From Escherichia coli O127:H6 str. E2348/69 (GTDB taxonomy: Bacteria; Pseudomonadota; Gammaproteobacteria; Enterobacterales; Enterobacteriaceae), in the NCBI RefSeq assembly GCF_000026545.1, contig NC_011601.1: a stretch of 64,000 nucleotides of DNA, one strand, 5' to 3'. The position numbers were made by a program, and so were the translations under genes. Each line of letters begins with the position of its first letter. Within the stretch, counting starts at the first letter, position 1. Below, one piece after another: positions 48,699-54,146 of this stretch. The notes beneath the pieces are model-generated. The model was given only the letters and a program-made list of their open reading frames with translations, searched no databases and was not told the DNA's origin.

Positions 48699-50051
48699 TT
48701 ATTGCCCCGCGACAGGTTTCAGCTCAATACGCTTGATATCGCCCACCAGCACCAGGTAGCTGAGTACCGCGATTAAGGCATGAACACCAACATAAATCAG
48801 CGCCCCATTAAAGGAGCCAGTCGTGCCAACGATATAACCAATTGCGATTGGCGTGACGATGCCAGAAATGTTACCAAACATGTTAAACAGGCCACCGGAA
48901 AGACCGCTGATCTCTTTTGGCGCAGTATCAGCCATTACAGCCCAACCCAGCGCACCGATCCCCTTACCGAAGAAGGCCAGCGCCATAAAGCCGATGATCA
49001 TCCACTCAACGTTGACGTAGTTGCAGAACACCATCACCATCGACAACAACATGCCCATCACGATCGGTGTTTTACGCGCAATGTTCAGTGAACCCGTGCG
49101 ACGCATCAGCCAGTCGGAAATAATCCCACCCAGCACACCGCCGATAAAACCGCAAACCGCCGGAACGGAAGCCACAAAGCCCGCTTTCAGAATCGACATC
49201 CCGCGCGCCTGCACCAGATAAACCGGGAACCAGGTAATGAAAAAGTAAGTCAGGGCGTTGATACAGTACTGACCGATATAAACGCCGATCATCATCCGTG
49301 ACCCGAGCAGCTGTTTGATCTGCCCCCACTTCACGCTAAACGGCACTTTAACTTTGGTGTTTTGCTGATCCATATTGATCAGCGCGCCACCCGCGGCGAT
49401 GTACTCCAGCTCTTTCTGATTTACGACCGGATGTTGATTTGGCTCGTGGATGACTTTCAACCAGATAAAGCTGATGACAATGCCCAGACCGCCCATAAAG
49501 AAAAAGACGTGTGACCAGCCCACTTCATGCGTCAGCCAGCCCATAATCGGCGCGAAGATAACCGTTGCGAAGTATTGAGCGGAGTTAAAAATCGACACCG
49601 CCGTTCCCCTTTCCTGCGCCGGAAACCAGGCCGCAACAATGCGACTGTTGCCGGGGAAAGAGGGCGCTTCAGCAAGCCCGACCAGGAAGCGCAGCGTAAA
49701 CAGGGCAACGATAATGCCGAATCCACTAAAGATATCGACGAAGCCTTGCAGCAAGGTAAACATCGACCAGATAAAGATCGACCAGAAGTAGACGCGTTTT
49801 GAACCAAAACGATCCAGCAACCAGCCACCAGGGATCTGCCCGATAACATACGCCCATGAGAAGGCAGAGAACACATAGCCCATTCCCACGGGATCAAGGC
49901 CGATATCTTTGGCCATTTCCGAACCGGCAATAGAAAGCGTAGCGCGGTCGCCGTAGTTGAAGGATGTGACGATAAACAACATCACCACTATCCAGTAACG
50001 AGCATTCGTGCGTTTTTCCACACTGCTCGCAGCCTGACTTAAAGAACTCAT
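48699..50051 (-). CDS. gudP: MFS glucarate/galactarate transporter
   Basis: 450-aa multi-TM ORF, anion:cation symporter-like; first gene of gud operon. Confidence 0.88.
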
Positions 50052-50484
50052 TGTTGCACTCCTGAAAATTCGCGTTAGCCACGCTCACTCTGGACTGCGA
50101 CATCGCCAGGAAATCAGAGGTGACGTAGGGTGTTTTTGCCGTTTTTATAGGTCGTTCGCCGAATACGGCGCGTGTTTATATCTGGCAATAGCAGTATAAA
50201 AAGCGCGCCATAGCGGCTCACCGTGCAACAACACAACATTAATGCGTTCAATGAGGCCCGATTTTGGCATTAGCCCTGGACGGTGGAATCCACTTCACGG
50301 AAATGAAAACAAGAACAAGAAAGGAAGGATTAAAACGAAGAAATAAAGAAGAGTATGAAATGGATCGCTTGACTCCAGGCAAACGCCAGTAAAAATCCGC
50401 GCTATGAAGCAGTTTTTACTGGCATTTGCCTGAAAAGATTCGATTCAGCACCGCTAAAACGGCATTTACCGCTCGCTGAACATA

Positions 50485-50934
50485 TCAGGACAACATCGTG
50501 CCCCAATGTTCAACCCACGGATTTGATTCCGTTTCCGGTTCCGGGTTCTCACTGGCGTCAATCAACAGCATTTCTCCCACCCGCTGAGCGCTCTGTTCCT
50601 GCAACAAGGCATCGAACTGTTTGCCGCCATTGCAGAAATTCACATAACTACTGTCGCCGAGCGCAATCACGCCATAACGCAGATTCGGCTGGAAGCCCAG
50701 ACTATCTTTGATTCCCTGAAAGAGTGGCACAATGCTATCAGGAAGGTCGCCCTGCCCGGTCGTGGACGTAACCACCAGAACATACTTATCCTGATAGGGC
50801 AGCCAGTCGCTTAATTCAGGCTCTTCAAATACCGTTGCTTTGTGGCCCTGCGCGGTCAGAATCGCTTCCGCTTCTTCGGCCACTAACAGTGAATTCCCGT
50901 ACATGGTGCCGACAAAAATACCAATTTCCGCCAT
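50485..50934 (-). CDS. yqcA: flavodoxin-like protein
   Basis: 149-aa [18 protein letters not shown]..., flavodoxin fold. Confidence 0.85.
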
Positions 50935-50951
50935 ACCGTTTTCTCCCTGGA

Positions 50952-51734
50952 TTAGGAACTTATCTCTCCATCCTGACCCGATGGCGCACTGAACTCAACC
51001 CTTTCATTTTCAGGAAGCAGACCGCGCCAGCCAAATTGTGATAACGCCTGCATCCAGGTGTCGTCCAGGCCCGCGTGAATAGTCAGCGGCTCGCCAGTAA
51101 AAGGATGCGTCAATGACAACTGACTGGCATGCAGCATTAACCGCTGAAGGCCAAAATGCTCAGCACCGCTGCGATTCTGGCGTAAATCACCATGTTTGCT
51201 GTCGCCAATAATCGGGTGCCGCAAATGGGCAAGATGGCGACGAAGCTGGTGCTTGCGTCCAGTTTTCGGCTCCAGTTCCACCAGGCCGTAGCGCGTGGTC
51301 GGGTAACGTCCGGTCGCTACCGGCATTTCTACGGTCGCCAGACCGCGATAATGCGTCACTGCTGGCTGCGGGCCTTTATCTTCGCGGGCAAATTTATCAG
51401 CGATTTTGTCCAGTTCTTCCACCAGTGGATAATCCAGCACCGCTTCTTCCATCAACCAGCCACGCACAATCGCATGGTAACGTTTCTGGATTTGGTGCTG
51501 TTCAAACTGTTGTGCCAGCAGCCGTCCGGCTTCGCTGGATAATCCCATCAACAACACACCAGAAGTTGGTCGGTCCAGACGATGAGCAGTAAAAACATGC
51601 TGGCCTATCTGGTCACGCACGGTTTGCATGACCACTACTTTCTCGTCGCGATCCAGCCAGCTGCGGTGAACCAACCAGCCGGAGGGTTTATTTACCGCAA
51701 CCAGCCATTCATCCTGATAGAGTATTTCCAGCAT
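50952..51734 (-). CDS. truC: tRNA pseudouridine(65) synthase TruC
   Basis: 260-aa ORF, RluA-family pseudouridine synthase ([12 protein letters not shown]). Confidence 0.88.
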
Positions 51735-52063
51735 TAGCTCGCATCATCCGCAAAAAGAGCATCCAGTTTTTCCAGCTCTGCCAGAATAAGCGCGCGTTGC
51801 GGGTGGTCCGTCGCCAGCGCCATTTCATAATAAGGCGCAACAGCAAAAGCGCCCGGTAACGGCTGGTTGTTATCTAACAAATCGTGCATTCGCGGGATCA
51901 GCACCCACTGCAACCACTCCAGTGGTTCCATGGTGTCCATAAAGAACGGTTGAGTACTGTTAAATTGATGCGGCAGGGGTTCATCGTTTCGCCAGTGCTG
52001 ATGTTCACGCAGTAACGCTTCAAGCGCCTGCAACTGGAGACGAACGCGGTCATGAGTGGTCAT
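51734..52063 (-). CDS. yqcC: DUF446 protein YqcC
   Basis: 109-aa ORF overlapping truC start; conserved position. Confidence 0.78.
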   Translation of the reverse strand: MTTHDRVRLQLQALEALLREHQHWRNDEPLPHQFNSTQPFFMDTMEPLEWLQWVLIPRMHDLLDNNQPLPGAFAVAPYYEMALATDHPQRALILAELEKLDALFADDAS

Positions 52064-52105
52064 AAAGCAACCTCAATAAGAAAAACTGCCGCGAAGAATA
52101 GCAGG

Positions 52106-52474
52106 AATAAAAAAAGGGAGCACTGTATTCACAGTGCTCCCGGTTCGTTTCGCAGCATTCCGGCTACTTTTATTGCTCCCTGCTCATCCTTGACAACTTT
52201 TCCTCTGGCCTTACGGCCAATCGTTCATCCTGAACTATTGCTTCCTGCTCACACCACCCCGATGTGATACTTCATCCTGAAGTGTTCCTGGCCTTCCTGA
52301 CCCACCGAATCATCCTGACCGGTTCTCATTCTCCATCCTGGAGGTGTCCTTTAACGCGTCCTGCGTCATCCTCTTCGCTTCATCCAGAAGCCTTTCCCTG
52401 AAACACCATCCTGGTGTGTCCTTCAGAAGTGTCATCATCCTGATGTTCACTTCGTTGTCTGACTCCCTGTCGAC
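52106..52474 (-). ncRNA. csrB: CsrB small regulatory RNA (CsrA-sequestering)
   Basis: ~369 nt; transcript begins GUCGACAGGGAG...; about 18 GGA-containing repeats (seen as CATCCTG/TCCTG on the given strand); ends in hairpin GGGAGCACUGUGAAUACAGUGCUCCC + U7 (A-run 52108..52114). Confidence 0.9.
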
Positions 52475-52647
52475 GAAGATAGAATCGTCTTTTTCTCGAA
52501 GTCTTACAAGGCGCTTACAGACAATGCCTTAAGGAAAATTTCATATGAAAGTTAAGAATTAACAAGCAACATGTTGTTTTTAAATGAGAATAACGATTCT
52601 TATCTTTTTAAGTATTCGCTTATTTCCTGGCGATCTCCTACAGAGTC

Positions 52648-52665
52648 TGTAAGAGATCTCTCACA
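52648..52665. promoter_or_regulatory. UvrY/SirA-type 18-bp palindrome upstream of csrB
   Basis: TGTAAGAGATCTCTCACA, near-perfect inverted repeat ~175 bp upstream of the csrB 5' end. Confidence 0.7.
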
Positions 52666-52684
52666 ACCAGATGGGGTATTTGGA

Positions 52685-53230
52685 TTACAGAAGAGGCTTA
52701 AGTTGATTAAGGAATTCCGCAAGATTTGAGGCTAAATGCGTCCGTTTACGTGTTCCCAGCGTCTCTTTGCACACTTCACCGGAGAGATTACACACCGAGA
52801 TGACCTCTAACTCTTCTTCCAGCGTCGCGATAAATAGCGTGGGCGGCAGTTTTAGCCTTTTCTGAGTCACCAGATGACCAATCAGATTTTCCTGCACCCG
52901 ACGGAAGTCGTCTTCACTCCAGGTTTGCAGCAATGTCAGTTTGATATCGCCAAACTGCGCGTGCATATCCCCGGCAAACTGAGTCGTATAAAAGGTATGA
53001 ATCGTGGGTTGTATCACAATATCAAAAGCGCGTTCAACCGCGTTTACATTTTGTTCCCCGGTAAACGGCTGGGGTTGCCAGTATACGGCATCTTCGGTAG
53101 TTGAAATAATGCACGGTGAAGGAACGCCGTACAGTTCCTCACTTAACGGCCAGCTTTTATGCTCTTCATGCCACGCATCGCAGTAGCGTGCAGTAAAATC
53201 TTTCAGGGCTTGTGCGGTCAAATCGTCCAC
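52685..53230 (-). CDS. syd: SecY-interacting protein Syd
   Basis: 181-aa [25 protein letters not shown]... Confidence 0.85.
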
Positions 53231-53297
53231 TAATTTCTCTCTTCACTTAAACCAGATACACTTGTCGTTTAGTTTATCTGGTTTATGACGGTGAAAC

Positions 53298-54146
53298 ATG
53301 TCTTCTTATGCAAACCATCAGGCACTTGCGGGCCTGACACTTGGAAAATCAACCGATTATCGGGATACCTATGACGCCAGCCTACTGCAAGGCGTACCAC
53401 GCAGCCTGAATCGCGACCCGCTGGGTCTGAAAGCGGATAACCTGCCTTTTCACGGTACGGATATCTGGACGCTGTATGAACTTTCCTGGCTGAATGCGAA
53501 AGGTTTGCCGCAGGTCGCTGTCGGTCATGTTGAACTTGATTACACCAGCGTAAATCTGATTGAGTCGAAGAGTTTTAAGCTCTATCTCAACAGTTTTAAC
53601 CAGACGCGTTTTAATAACTGGGATGAGGTGCGCCAGACGCTGGAGCGCGACTTAAGCACTTGCGCCCAGGGTAAGGTTAGCGTGGCGTTATATCGTCTTG
53701 ATGAACTGGAAGGCCAGCCGATAGGTCATTTCAATGGCACCTGCATTGATGACCAGGATATCACTATCGATAACGATGAATTCACTACTGACTATCTGGA
53801 GAATGCCACCAGTGGTGAAAAAGTAGTGGAAGAGACGCTTGTCAGCCACCTGCTGAAATCAAACTGCCTGATCACCCATCAACCAGATTGGGGTTCGATC
53901 CAAATTCAGTATCGTGGACGCCAAATTGACAGAGAAAAACTGCTGCGTTACCTGGTCTCTTTCCGTCATCACAACGAGTTCCACGAACAGTGCGTGGAAC
54001 GCATCTTTAATGACCTGTTACGCTTCTGCCAGCCAGAAAAATTGAGCGTTTACGCACGTTATACCCGTCGTGGCGGTCTGGACATTAACCCGTGGCGCAG
54101 TAATAACGATTTTGTCCCATCGACCACAAGACTGGTTCGGCAATAA
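53298..54146 (+). CDS. queF: NADPH-dependent 7-cyano-7-deazaguanine reductase
   Basis: 282-aa two-domain QueF-type ORF. Confidence 0.9.

Follow-up and report, generated by a model that had tools for sequence, protein, structure and literature searches.

Dar and Sorek (2018) described Rho-dependent transcripts that end just past stable stem-loops without U-rich tails. In this class the stem-loops guard the RNA against PNPase and RNase II, and a stretch with more C than G, or rut site, is found directly downstream. The gap between yqcA and gudP in Escherichia coli is like this class in that a stable stem-loop without a U-rich tail stands downstream of a gene, that a C-over-G tract (a candidate rut site, 50370-50293) follows right after the stem, and that a region of bicyclomycin-sensitive termination lies in the gap. 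It is unlike the class in that curated Term-seq lists from three conditions contain no 3' end at the stem base, that the stem of about 24 bp is much longer than the terminator-like stems of the class, and that an A-tract upstream of the stem, typically missing there, is kept. A protective 3' stem-loop on a Rho-terminated transcript is a known and ordinary arrangement and, by this analogy, whether the repeat is one more member of the class is an evenly poised judgement.

Other described systems share single properties with the locus. It is like a canonical intrinsic terminator in having a stable G+C-rich stem-loop whose homologues in Citrobacter, Salmonella and Superficieibacter are terminators of this kind, and unlike one in that the U-tract is either base-paired in the stem or replaced by GCCUG in E. 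coli, and in that read-through is sensitive to Rho (downstream to upstream reads go from 23/114 to 90/112 with bicyclomycin, a coarse comparison made with 800-nt windows). It differs from a bidirectional terminator in that there is no convergent gene, because both neighbours are co-directional. Like REP and BIME elements, it is an intergenic palindrome downstream of a gene, and its RNA can form a fold that stops exonucleases, but it occupies one locus per genome and has no REP consensus; in some Citrobacter genomes a REP-like GCCGGGTCAGGCG...CCCGGC stands in place of the hairpin module. With the hairpin substrates of RNase III, which are long duplexes in 5' and 3' UTRs, it has in common a near-perfect duplex of at least 20 bp, while nothing apart from this length points to it as a substrate. 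Finally, the GGC-N4-GCC arms resemble a gudP-proximal block and half of a 14-mer found at cdaR and in the garP-garD gap, as in the dyad operators of the CdaR regulon, but the similarity extends to a half-box only and is not significant in a three-way test; the spacer between the arms, which stand 43 bp from each other, is variable, and compensatory change has occurred in the stem.

The window, i.e., the whole stretch of 64 kb of DNA that was analysed, has 433 bp between gudP and yqcA, the latter being the final gene of the co-directional run yqcC-truC-yqcA (Table 1). Within this gap, the left arm CAGGCAAACGCCAGTAAAAA (50376-50395) and the right arm TTTTTACTGGCATTTGCCTG (50413-50432) of an inverted repeat are complementary at 19 of 20 bases and separated by a spacer of 17 nt. 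A weaker complementarity of 77% reaches arms of 35 nt (50361-50395 and 50413-50447). The original prediction had placed an inverted repeat in this gap just downstream of the yqcA stop, and both arm sequences that it quoted are indeed found there, the yqcA-proximal end of the repeat lying 52 nt past the stop codon. Its right arm was correctly positioned, while its left arm, given as 50377-50396, is one base off, so that the spacer is 17 nt long rather than the 16 nt that had been counted. The absence of a clean U-tract, from which the repeat had been described as not a typical intrinsic terminator, is confirmed by the tails GAGUCAAG on the minus strand and AAAAGAUU on the plus strand; the comparative data reveal a modified terminator, which the sequence alone could not make visible. 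Of the three options that had been suggested, those of an RNA element (processing or stability) have become the better supported, by compensatory changes, by descent from a terminator and by the anatomy of a protective stem-loop. A protein-binding dyad is favoured by a conserved GGC-N4-GCC in the left arm, and disfavoured by tests for a motif shared with other CdaR targets, which do not rise above chance.

Table 1. Positions of the repeat, its neighbours and flanking features in the window
Feature	Position	Strand	Remark
gudP, downstream gene	48699..50051	-	separated by the element from yqcA transcription
Position matching published Rho termination region K-12 2922118	50060..50080 (~50069)	-	coordinate mapping
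Putative gudP -10 hexamer TATACT	50198-50193	-	predicted promoter, not mapped
Candidate Rho utilisation (rut) tract, pyrimidine-rich, G-poor	50293..50370	-	C/G ratio
Conserved block TCAAGCGATCCATTTCATACTC directly 3' of hairpin	50351..50372	-	
3' arm of RNA hairpin (left DNA arm)	50376..50395	-	UUUUUACUGGCGUUUGCCUG
Hairpin apex	50396..50412	-	inner helix, loop and bulge; from folds
5' arm of RNA hairpin (right DNA arm)	50413..50432	-	CAGGCAAAUGCCAGUAAAAA
yqcA 3' UTR, 52 nt, stop codon to hairpin	50433..50484	-	
Cra/FruR-like box GCTGAATCGAATCT	50436-50449		within yqcA 3' UTR
yqcA (flavodoxin) CDS	50485..50934	-	ORF and RefSeq annotation

No other inverted repeat in the 64-kb window has at least 19 of 20 complementary bases and a spacer of at most 40, and none of this quality appears in 20 simulated windows; chance comes nowhere near to explaining the repeat. 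It carries no existing annotation. When the interval 49500-53500 is searched with the covariance models of Rfam 15 at E <= 1, CsrB is the only match and the repeat remains unmatched, and the equivalent gap in five other genera gives no Rfam match. Conservation across related genomes, on which the original prediction was to be judged, is found at two levels: the repeat is present in 5425 of 5426 complete E. coli genomes, and its stem is compensatorily kept in sister genera. In the E. coli genomes it is single-copy, with one locus per genome, which rules out a repeated or mobile element. A query of 87 nt does find a second "place", read here as a self-match of the palindrome to the other strand, as a query of 461 nt has a median of one place. 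The hairpin is also kept in all five Escherichia species-level genomes in which gudP lies beside yqcA (L002-L006), although in lineage L002 two mismatches and three wobbles weaken the fold to -24 kcal/mol. Conservation within the species is uninformative, since the entire 433-bp gap, and not the hairpin alone, is near-identical (98.7-100% among sampled E. coli), and a diversity too low for measuring selection counts against the reading preferred below.

The most likely product of the repeat is a long RNA hairpin near the 3' end of the yqcA transcript. The arms fall short of full complementarity at one position, C.A in plus-strand terms but U.G on the minus strand, which is the sense strand of yqcA and gudP, and as the latter is a G-U pair in RNA, a helix of about 24 bp follows. 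In the predicted fold, this minus-strand helix consists of 20 bp, a bulge and 4 bp, with 2-3 further terminal U-A or U.G pairs, and has a folding energy of -37 to -46 kcal/mol. A 101-nt minus-strand RNA folds with -45.6 kcal/mol, the hairpin dominating both the MFE and the centroid structure, and the 57-nt core with the full stem folds with -36.8 kcal/mol. The corresponding z-scores are -6.95 for the minus and -5.59 for the plus strand, and none of 200 shuffles folds equally well. Two elements of the 5' arm are conserved from genus to genus, namely GGCAAATGCC and the A-tract GTAAAAA. At the apex, the bases CUGC (50412-50409) pair with GCGG (50400-50397) around a loop of 8 nt (UUCAUAGC, 50408-50401), and the A at 50396 is bulged. 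The upper third of the stem is built from A-U pairs alone, and in length the helix far exceeds that of an ordinary intrinsic terminator. Contained in it is a sub-hairpin ending ...ACUGGC, which folds with -20.7 kcal/mol and is followed by the tail GUUUGCCUG.

Assignment of the hairpin to one strand through G-U asymmetry was tried and given up, as the asymmetry is clear in Escherichia, absent elsewhere and statistically not significant. All 6 Escherichia species-level sequences, and every sampled E. coli variant with an extractable hairpin, have a sense RNA that is 1.4-12 kcal/mol more stable than the antisense one. Where the stem is polymorphic among the sampled E. coli (O157:H7 L085 and L089), the change is C>U and produces a G.U pair in the sense RNA. 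When all stem transitions in Escherichia are counted, 5 of 7 have the wobble bias (binomial p ~0.23). Outside Escherichia, the sense strand is stabler in just 8 of 20 sequences, without systematic preference, which speaks against the preferred reading.

Blocks on both sides of the hairpin allow the element to be aligned across 26 genomes. On the sense strand, the homologues in six relatives consist of a hairpin followed by UUUUCA or UUUCAU, and their folding energies in kcal/mol are -24.2 in Citrobacter sp. MGH106, -21.1 in C. koseri, -20.4 in C. amalonaticus, -14.2 in S. arizonae, -16.4 in Superficieibacter electus and -14.4 in Enterobacter sp. 10-1. The apex in Citrobacter is a G+C-rich hairpin of 6-7 bp, e.g., CCUUUC/GAAAGG; the inner hairpin of Escherichia, at only -2.8 kcal/mol by itself, is decayed. 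The last eight bases of the Escherichia 3' arm, UUUGCCUG, stand where the ancestral U-tract UUUUCAUA was. When the sequences are compared, four clustered substitutions have turned the U-tract UUUUCAUAGGG into the extra stem UUUGCCUGGAG, and this is why no free U tail is left in Escherichia. The hairpin most likely descends, as judged from the alignment, from the canonical stem-plus-U-tract terminator that in many Enterobacteriaceae lies immediately before the gudP control region. Other genera have, in addition, a terminator (T1) of the form CCCTCC...GGAGGG directly after the yqcA stop, where Escherichia is without a separate terminator.

The pairing itself can be followed in a set of 14 sequences from Escherichia, Citrobacter, Salmonella and Superficieibacter. 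Here, 84.7% of the cells are paired, compared with 34-52% when the partners are slid, and seven pairs are altered on both sides, exemplified by A-U, U-A and C-G at CCnGU/ACnGG. Not one of 500 shuffles reaches the observed paired fraction, the number of double changes or the covariation score. These compensatory changes indicate that pairing was selected in the sister genera. Other observations go against the preferred reading: RNAalifold gives no consensus structure for all 26 genomes, the outer six pairs of the stem are restricted to Escherichia, and three genera (Kosakonia, Phytobacter and Silvania) have kept the flanking blocks but have no hairpin. From the last of these follows that some of the arm sequence is conserved for a reason other than pairing.

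Directly 3' of the hairpin stands the block listed in Table 1, which has the CRP-like form aGcGA-N6-TCAyA. All 26 of the 26 aligned genomes have it with little or no variation, it persists where the hairpin is absent, and its distance to the next conserved block upstream of gudP is fixed at 62-66 nt; the control region upstream of gudP probably starts here. Nearer to gudP, other genera have kept the blocks TATACT and TTGCAC. An anti-Shine-Dalgarno role for the CACUCC in the downstream block was dropped, because the conserved bases are TTTCACA and not CUCC.

How transcription ends between yqcA and gudP can be judged from the sequence and from published measurements on K-12. A terminator scan of both strands does not call the repeat, and on the minus strand it finds no other terminator in the gap. 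In a 78-nt window that begins at the stem base, the C/G ratio climbs to its peak of 2.25, about the 99th percentile of windows across the 64 kb, and this tract holds 16 YC dinucleotides. For K-12, supplementary file 2 of Adams et al. (2021) includes a minus-strand region of Rho termination at 2922118. It belongs to their category "orphan" and has a Rho score of 3.98 (p = 9e-8), with upstream/downstream reads of 114/23 in untreated cells and 112/90 with bicyclomycin. By these reads, inhibition of Rho takes read-through into gudP from about 20% to about 80%, while the position is coarse, as the call was made with 800-nt windows. We infer that the terminated RNA originates from yqcA; a gudP leader transcript could also supply the gudP reads induced by bicyclomycin. 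The curated Term-seq tables of Adams et al., covering three growth conditions, contain no 3' end in K-12 29221xx-29225xx, for which low expression of yqcA is a possible reason. The TERMITe tables have no entries for yqcA or gudP, and literature searches on yqcA with terminator or gudP, and on gudT with sRNA, found nothing.

The reading that we prefer, and in which we place about half of our belief, is that the terminator-descended hairpin protects the 3' end of yqcC-truC-yqcA, while Rho does most of the terminating and shields gudP from read-through. When the hairpin lacks a free U tail, intrinsic termination would be inefficient and RNA polymerase would mostly pass. Rho would then load on the C-rich, G-poor tract adjoining the stem and stop transcription before or within the start of gudP, whereafter 3'-to-5' exonucleases would trim the transcript to the base of the hairpin, so that the mature 3' end is both defined and protected. 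The outcome would be a stable yqcA message and a glucarate-inducible gudPXD operon that is insulated from upstream read-through. That Rho acts on read-through from yqcA, that a 3' end forms at the foot of the stem and that the mRNA gains stability from the hairpin are steps that we infer only.

It is unlikely, but deserves some weight, that the element is still an active Rho-independent terminator and that Rho clears only the remainder. The terminating unit would be either the sub-hairpin GCCAGUAAAAA...UUUUUACUGGC (-20.7 kcal/mol) followed by GUUUGCC or the inner hairpin between A5 and U5. Its homology to the canonical terminators of sister genera, the strong stem followed by three U residues, and the A5 and U5 tracts beside the apical loop, which are arranged as in bidirectional terminators, are all consistent with such activity, and so is the fact that in untreated cells merely ~20% of the signal reaches gudP. 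When Rho is inhibited by bicyclomycin, however, the ratio of downstream to upstream reads is ~0.8, which leaves little room for Rho-independent termination. The run of U after the sub-stem, furthermore, is 3 nt long and gives way to GCC, the inner hairpin has the low stability already noted, the consensus scan calls neither strand, and curated Term-seq lists no 3' end here.

Somewhat more doubtful is that the repeat acts as DNA, in which case its arms would be inverted GGC-N4-GCC(A)..AAA boxes that bind a regulator of gudPXD, CdaR or another. Placed 43 bp apart, centre to centre, they would be distal operators alongside a similar gudP-proximal box. The motif GGCWWWYGCC occurs 19 times in the window, where 3.85 are expected, and three of these sites fall within the 433-bp gap. 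With at most one mismatch, the 9-mer GCAAATGCC occurs four times in the gap, compared with ~0.2 expected from its rate in the whole window, but the motif was derived from the arm itself, and two of its four matches are the arms. The left-arm block is conserved (as GGGCAAATGCC, GGGCGTTTGCC and TGGCAATTGCC) even in genera without the hairpin, and it is similar to the block CTGGGCTTTTGCCACAAAC, which is conserved close to gudP, as well as to the opening 9 nt of GGCATTTGCACAATGCC, located upstream of cdaR. There, the 9-mer GCAAATGCC is found exactly, and GGCATTTGCACAATGCC has a 14-mer in common with the garP-garD gap. Two of the four Escherichia substitutions yield a second perfect GGC-N4-GCC, and the repeat has the Cra-like and the CRP-like box on either side. 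The compensatory series CCaGU/ACuGG, CCuGU/ACaGG and CCCG/CGGG, on the other hand, lies outside the box and indicates pairing, and the spacer differs in length and sequence among homologues. When 12-mers are compared among the control regions of gudP, gar and cdaR, the agreement does not exceed that of shuffles, and the full GCATT-N5-AATGC box is absent from the gap. A box GCATTTGCACAATG is carried both upstream of cdaR and in garP-garD, but its best match in the gudP gap has 7 mismatches in 17 positions; a CdaR box shared by all three was rejected, the similarity in the gudP gap being that of a half-box and no better than in shuffles. The arms lie ~190-240 bp upstream of the putative gudP -10 hexamer, genera without the whole module retain gudP and its proximal control blocks, and the literature searched gives no published CdaR site at gudP.

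The boxes that flank the repeat also enter an alternative to which we assign a low probability, namely that the hairpin is the centre of a composite control node. The converted barrier of Escherichia would in this case be conditional, because it depends on Rho, and carbon status or Rho activity would set the read-through from yqcC-truC-yqcA into gudPXD, with the Cra-like box, which is conserved, and the CRP-like box on the flanks.

We regard it as similarly improbable that the stem is a relic without present function, a decaying terminator that was extended by one templated (quasi-palindrome, template-switch) mutation in the ancestor of Escherichia and that owes its persistence solely to the young age and uniformity of intergenic regions in E. 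coli. The four substitutions fall within 8 nt and each raises the complementarity to the opposite arm, and clustered substitutions that raise complementarity are the signature of quasi-palindrome correction. The uninformative conservation within the species, the degraded stem of L002 and the repeated loss of the module in other genera are also as expected for a relic. Retention of the hairpin in L002-L006 and in nearly every E. coli genome argues otherwise, as do the compensatory changes of the sister genera, which point to selected pairing, and the fact that the hairpin is the only structured element from yqcA to the gudP control region in Escherichia.

Very unlikely is that the duplex of ~24-27 bp is a site for RNase III, cleavage of which, by taking off the 3' hairpin or cutting read-through transcripts, would set the decay of yqcA mRNA or uncouple gudP, for although the helix stands out among bacterial 3' hairpins by its length and near-perfect pairing, was lengthened by the Escherichia-specific substitutions well past what exonuclease protection needs, and reaches the generally accepted substrate minimum of about two helical turns, length by itself does not predict cleavage, and yqcA is unmentioned in the text of the papers that map RNase III cleavage in E. 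coli.

Two candidates on the plus strand were rejected. A small protein would be encoded by the ORF 50264-50392, which ends with a TAA stop in the left arm, but only 18 codons of its frame remain in Escherichia L004 and only 3 in Citrobacter and Salmonella, and the ORF is unannotated in K-12 and has no match in the O157 small-gene supplements. A sigma-70 promoter TTGACT-16-AAAAAT (50369-50396) would have no plausible product; the number of such promoters is that expected from shuffles, and the -10 element is not conserved in other genera. In sister genera, there is a slight possibility that a small RNA not yet described, ending at the hairpin, is encoded in the 100 nt that separate the two terminators; inspection by eye gave no convincing conserved promoter for it, and Rfam gives no match.

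If the preferred reading of a protective hairpin followed by Rho termination is true, the locus adds a further case in which a U-less protective hairpin and a rut site end a Rho-terminated operon. Its practical value would be limited to annotation of the 3' end of yqcC-truC-yqcA and to an explanation of how gudPXD is shielded. The canonical terminator of Citrobacter and Salmonella and the long, U-less hairpin of Escherichia form a clean natural pair in which to study how losing a U-tract moves a site from intrinsic to Rho-dependent termination, and the same pair could show whether quasi-palindrome correction can drive such a terminator switch.

The inverted repeat occupies part of the 433 bp that separate the yqcA stop from the gudP start, 3' of yqcA and 5' of gudP on the minus strand, which carries all the neighbouring genes and is taken as the sense strand. 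The right arm stands where the original prediction placed it, while the left arm is present but begins one base to the left, and the spacer is 17 nt rather than a 16-nt loop. The proposed imperfect stem of about 20 bp agrees with complementarity at 19/20 positions, and the tail after the stem, GAGUCAAG, has no clean U-tract, as had been seen. No other inverted repeat of this quality with a spacer of at most 40 nt exists in the 64-kb window, and 20 simulated windows contained none. Minus-strand RNA folds with -45.6 kcal/mol over 101 nt (z = -6.95) and plus-strand RNA with -38.3 kcal/mol (z = -5.59); the former is stronger because the single mismatched position becomes U.G in minus-strand RNA and C.A in plus-strand RNA. 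In the former, the helix has 20 bp, a bulged A and 4 bp (CUGC/GCGG) closing an 8-nt loop, and its base is lengthened by 2-3 U-A or U.G pairs. The hairpin is not called by a consensus terminator scan of both strands, matches no Rfam family and has no annotation in RefSeq K-12, where an identical copy lies at 2922427-2922482; it is single-copy in E. coli. The repeat is real, non-random and conserved.

Features of the yqcA-gudP region (window coordinates)
Feature	Position	Strand	Sequence
gudP	48699-50051	minus	
Terminator-like site	50157-50170	plus	CGCCGAATACGGCG then CGTGTTTATA
GGY-WWWY-GCC block	50266-50275		GGCTAATGCC
Conserved gudP-upstream block	50292-50309		TTTTCATTTCCGTGAAGT
Hexamer of this strain	50329-50334	minus	TTTAAT
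CRP-like block	50351-50372	minus	TCAAGCGAyCyrTTTCAyAC
Hairpin	50376-50432	minus	
Left arm	50376-50395		CAGGCAAACGCCAGTAAAAA
GGY-WWWY-GCC block	50378-50387		GGCAAACGCC
Right arm	50413-50432		TTTTTACTGGCATTTGCCTG
GGY-WWWY-GCC block	50421-50430		GGCAAATGCC
Cra/FruR-like box	50436-50449	minus	GCTGAATCGAATCT
GGY-WWWY-GCC block	50461-50470		GGTAAATGCC
yqcA	50485-50934	minus	
truC	50952-51734	minus	
yqcC	51734-52063	minus	
csrB	52106-52465	minus	

A full-length CsrB sRNA (Rfam RF00018, 382 bits) sits immediately upstream of yqcC, the same place as in K-12. The plus-strand site opposite gudP, in the inferred gudP leader, is the sole terminator-like match in 49900-50700, a number equal to the chance expectation.

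Within the species, a 461-bp stretch around the hairpin is 100% identical to strain E2348/69 and is retained at at least 95% identity in 5425/5426 complete genomes. Sampled variants are few: one in the loop and two C>U changes in the stem, of which one is in the inner stem (O157:H7) and one in the left arm. Either stem change produces G.U in sense RNA; the whole gap is about as invariant, so that conservation within E. coli is uninformative on the hairpin specifically. Three loci deviate (2014C-4135, L090; SCU-105, L086; EC6563, H15): one has an IS66-family element directly after TCAAGC, beside the hairpin, another a tandem duplication of 20 bp, GTAAATGCCGTTTTAGCGGT, in the stretch from the yqcA stop to the hairpin, and in the third only 37% of the 461-bp query is matched.

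Conservation in related genomes, which the original prediction had proposed as a check, extends to several genera of Enterobacteriaceae. When the DNA 3' of the yqcA stop is compared among 80 yqcA loci, one genome per species, a homologous module appears in five Escherichia lineages, several Citrobacter (koseri, amalonaticus, sedlakii and others), Salmonella arizonae and diarizonae, Superficieibacter, Silvania, Kosakonia, Phytobacter and some further Enterobacteriaceae; the C. freundii complex, Enterobacter, Lelliottia, Trabulsiella and Buttiauxella lack it. Such a distribution points to an old element with repeated losses. In yqcA sense, the module reads ACTGAATCG(A/T)GTTAGC, GGGCAAATGCC-n-GTAAAA, a variable apical hairpin, TTTTTAC-n-GGC(A/G)TTTTCA and TCAAGCGACCTGTTTCACACTC. 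The yqcA-gudP adjacency is broken in E. albertii (L015) and some Citrobacter spp. (L012-L014, L016, L019), where the fetched locus either lacks gudP or has it about 2 kb off with inserted ORFs, and the module is absent.

In Citrobacter, Salmonella, Superficieibacter and Enterobacter sp. 10-1, the sense-strand stem has -14 to -24 kcal/mol and is followed by UUUUCA or UUUCAU, by which the homologue is, in sequence, a textbook intrinsic terminator. The same four genera have a second terminator, CCCTCC...GGAGGG, directly 3' of the yqcA stop, which Escherichia lacks. It lies in the first ~100 nt after the stop (L007, L008, L020, L022-L024, L046-L051, L055, L058, L064), and is followed by a small hairpin with TGCCAGTAAGCA and a conserved AAAATAACGAC, all upstream of the hairpin homologue; this conserved 100-nt interval of the non-Escherichia genera contains no convincing promoter and no Rfam match.

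Under the E. coli 20-bp stem, 69% of cells are paired in the full set of 26 sequences, compared with 32-47% after the partners are slid; the six outermost pairs are restricted to Escherichia, and RNAalifold finds no consensus structure for this set. For the 14 sequences from Escherichia, Citrobacter, Salmonella and Superficieibacter, the paired fraction is 84.7% versus 34-52%, with two-sided changes at seven pairs (clearest CCaGU/ACuGG, CCuGU/ACaGG and CCCG/CGGG), and 0/500 shuffles equal the real set in paired fraction, double-change count or covariation score. This favours selection on pairing, in a supportive rather than conclusive manner, as the structure is drawn from these same, related sequences.

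Alignment of the 3' side, ...ACTGGCGTTTTCATAGGGTCAAGCGA in Citrobacter versus ...ACTGGCGTTTGCCTGGAGTCAAGCGA in E. coli, reveals four substitutions within 8 nt, each raising complementarity to the conserved 5' flank UUUUCAGGCAAA. Together they add about 8 pairs to the stem and abolish the free U-tract. In Escherichia the apical G+C hairpin has also decayed (-2.8 kcal/mol alone), and the stability of the hairpin is highest there, -24 to -37 kcal/mol versus -7 to -27 elsewhere.

On the sense strand, the 78 nt from the stem base on are pyrimidine-rich and G-poor, with 16 YC dinucleotides and a C/G of 2.25, near the 99th percentile for the window. A Rho utilisation site would be expected to have such a composition, which makes the tract a candidate rut. 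Adams et al. 2021 (PMC7815308) report a Rho termination region of class 'orphan' at K-12 2922118, minus strand (Rho score 3.98, p = 9e-8); the site lies 18 nt before the gudP ATG and some 310 nt beyond the hairpin. In 800-nt windows, the reads upstream and downstream of it were 114/23 untreated and 112/90 after bicyclomycin (PMC7815308). From this follows that most of the drop in RNA from yqcA to gudP is Rho-dependent, which argues against the hairpin as an efficient intrinsic terminator. Residual intrinsic termination is unlikely. The bicyclomycin effect could alternatively come from a gudP leader transcript and not from yqcA read-through.

Dar and Sorek 2018 (PMC6061677) found that E. coli transcripts terminated by Rho have precise ends immediately past stable stem-loops without U-rich tails, which guard against PNPase and RNase II and have C-over-G enrichment or rut sites directly downstream. 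The anatomy here, a stable stem without U-tract and a C-rich, G-poor tract after it, fits this class. A stable 3' end is thus predicted at the stem base; the curated Term-seq 3' ends given by Adams et al. (PMC7815308) for three growth conditions include the nearby csrB end (2924161/2) and none in K-12 29221xx-29225xx. The best reading, to which we give about an even chance, is that an ancestral intrinsic terminator lost its U-tract in Escherichia, and that the hairpin would now guard the 3' end of the yqcC-truC-yqcA transcript and act together with a downstream Rho-dependent terminator as an insulator.

Conserved blocks flank the repeat without belonging to it. The CRP-like block downstream of the hairpin (aGcGA-N6-TCACA in form) is nearly invariant in about 35 genomes of about 15 genera (L002-L081), and lies a fixed 62-66 nt from the conserved gudP-upstream block, with variable sequence between. 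It is present even without the hairpin, and wherever it exists a terminator lies just upstream, either the hairpin or, in seven genomes (L037, L041, L052, L069, L073, L077, L081), the yqcA terminator itself. This supports the hairpin as a putative boundary mark that sets the gudP control region apart from the yqcA transcript. The TTTAAT hexamer, TTTAAC in K-12 and most E. coli, lies ~30 nt downstream of the CRP-like box centre and resembles class II CRP promoter geometry in this strain only, with no conservation in other genera. The Cra/FruR-like box, immediately 5' of the hairpin, matches the consensus RSTGAAWCSNTHHW at 13/14 positions; other genera have ACTGAATCGAGTTAGC in its place, which agrees with gcTGAAtCGaTTCAgc at 13/16 and is conserved as the first module part. 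Because the degenerate consensus is frequent in the window (25 matches versus 14 expected), the box is notable solely for its conservation across genera.

That the arms instead form a protein-binding dyad at the DNA level, as the original prediction allowed, is rather improbable. Each arm is partly conserved as sequence, beyond its pairing role, and GGC-N4-GCC is kept in Kosakonia, Phytobacter and Silvania, where neither hairpin nor sense-strand terminator exists; this motif was, however, picked from the arm itself. Two of the four GGY-WWWY-GCC blocks in the gap are the hairpin arms, and similar blocks lie right after the yqcA stop (GGTAAATGTC in K-12) and near the gudP promoter, where other genera have CTGGGCTTTTGCCACAAAC, similar to the left arm. 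Upstream of cdaR lies GGCATTTGCACAATGCC, plausibly a candidate CdaR box, of which the first nine bases equal the arm and 14 nt recur in the garP-garD gap. In K-12 the two sites (L083 6400-6416 and, as ATCATTGTGCAAATGCT, L082 7031-7047) have in common the exact 14-mer GCATTTGCACAATG, a GCATT-N5-AATGC palindrome; no published CdaR site for comparison was found in the literature searched. Yet the arms hold just half of the candidate box, shuffles do as well in a three-way 12-mer test, and the stem covariation falls outside the box.

The longer Escherichia stem could have been selected for or could stem from a single templated quasi-palindrome correction, with no preference between them. We consider a neutral relic very unlikely. 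An RNase III site is the least credible explanation of the long helix. If the hairpin is a terminator-derived insulator, one attractive feature is that the sister genera would offer a natural pair of terminators, intrinsic in one and Rho-dependent in the other.
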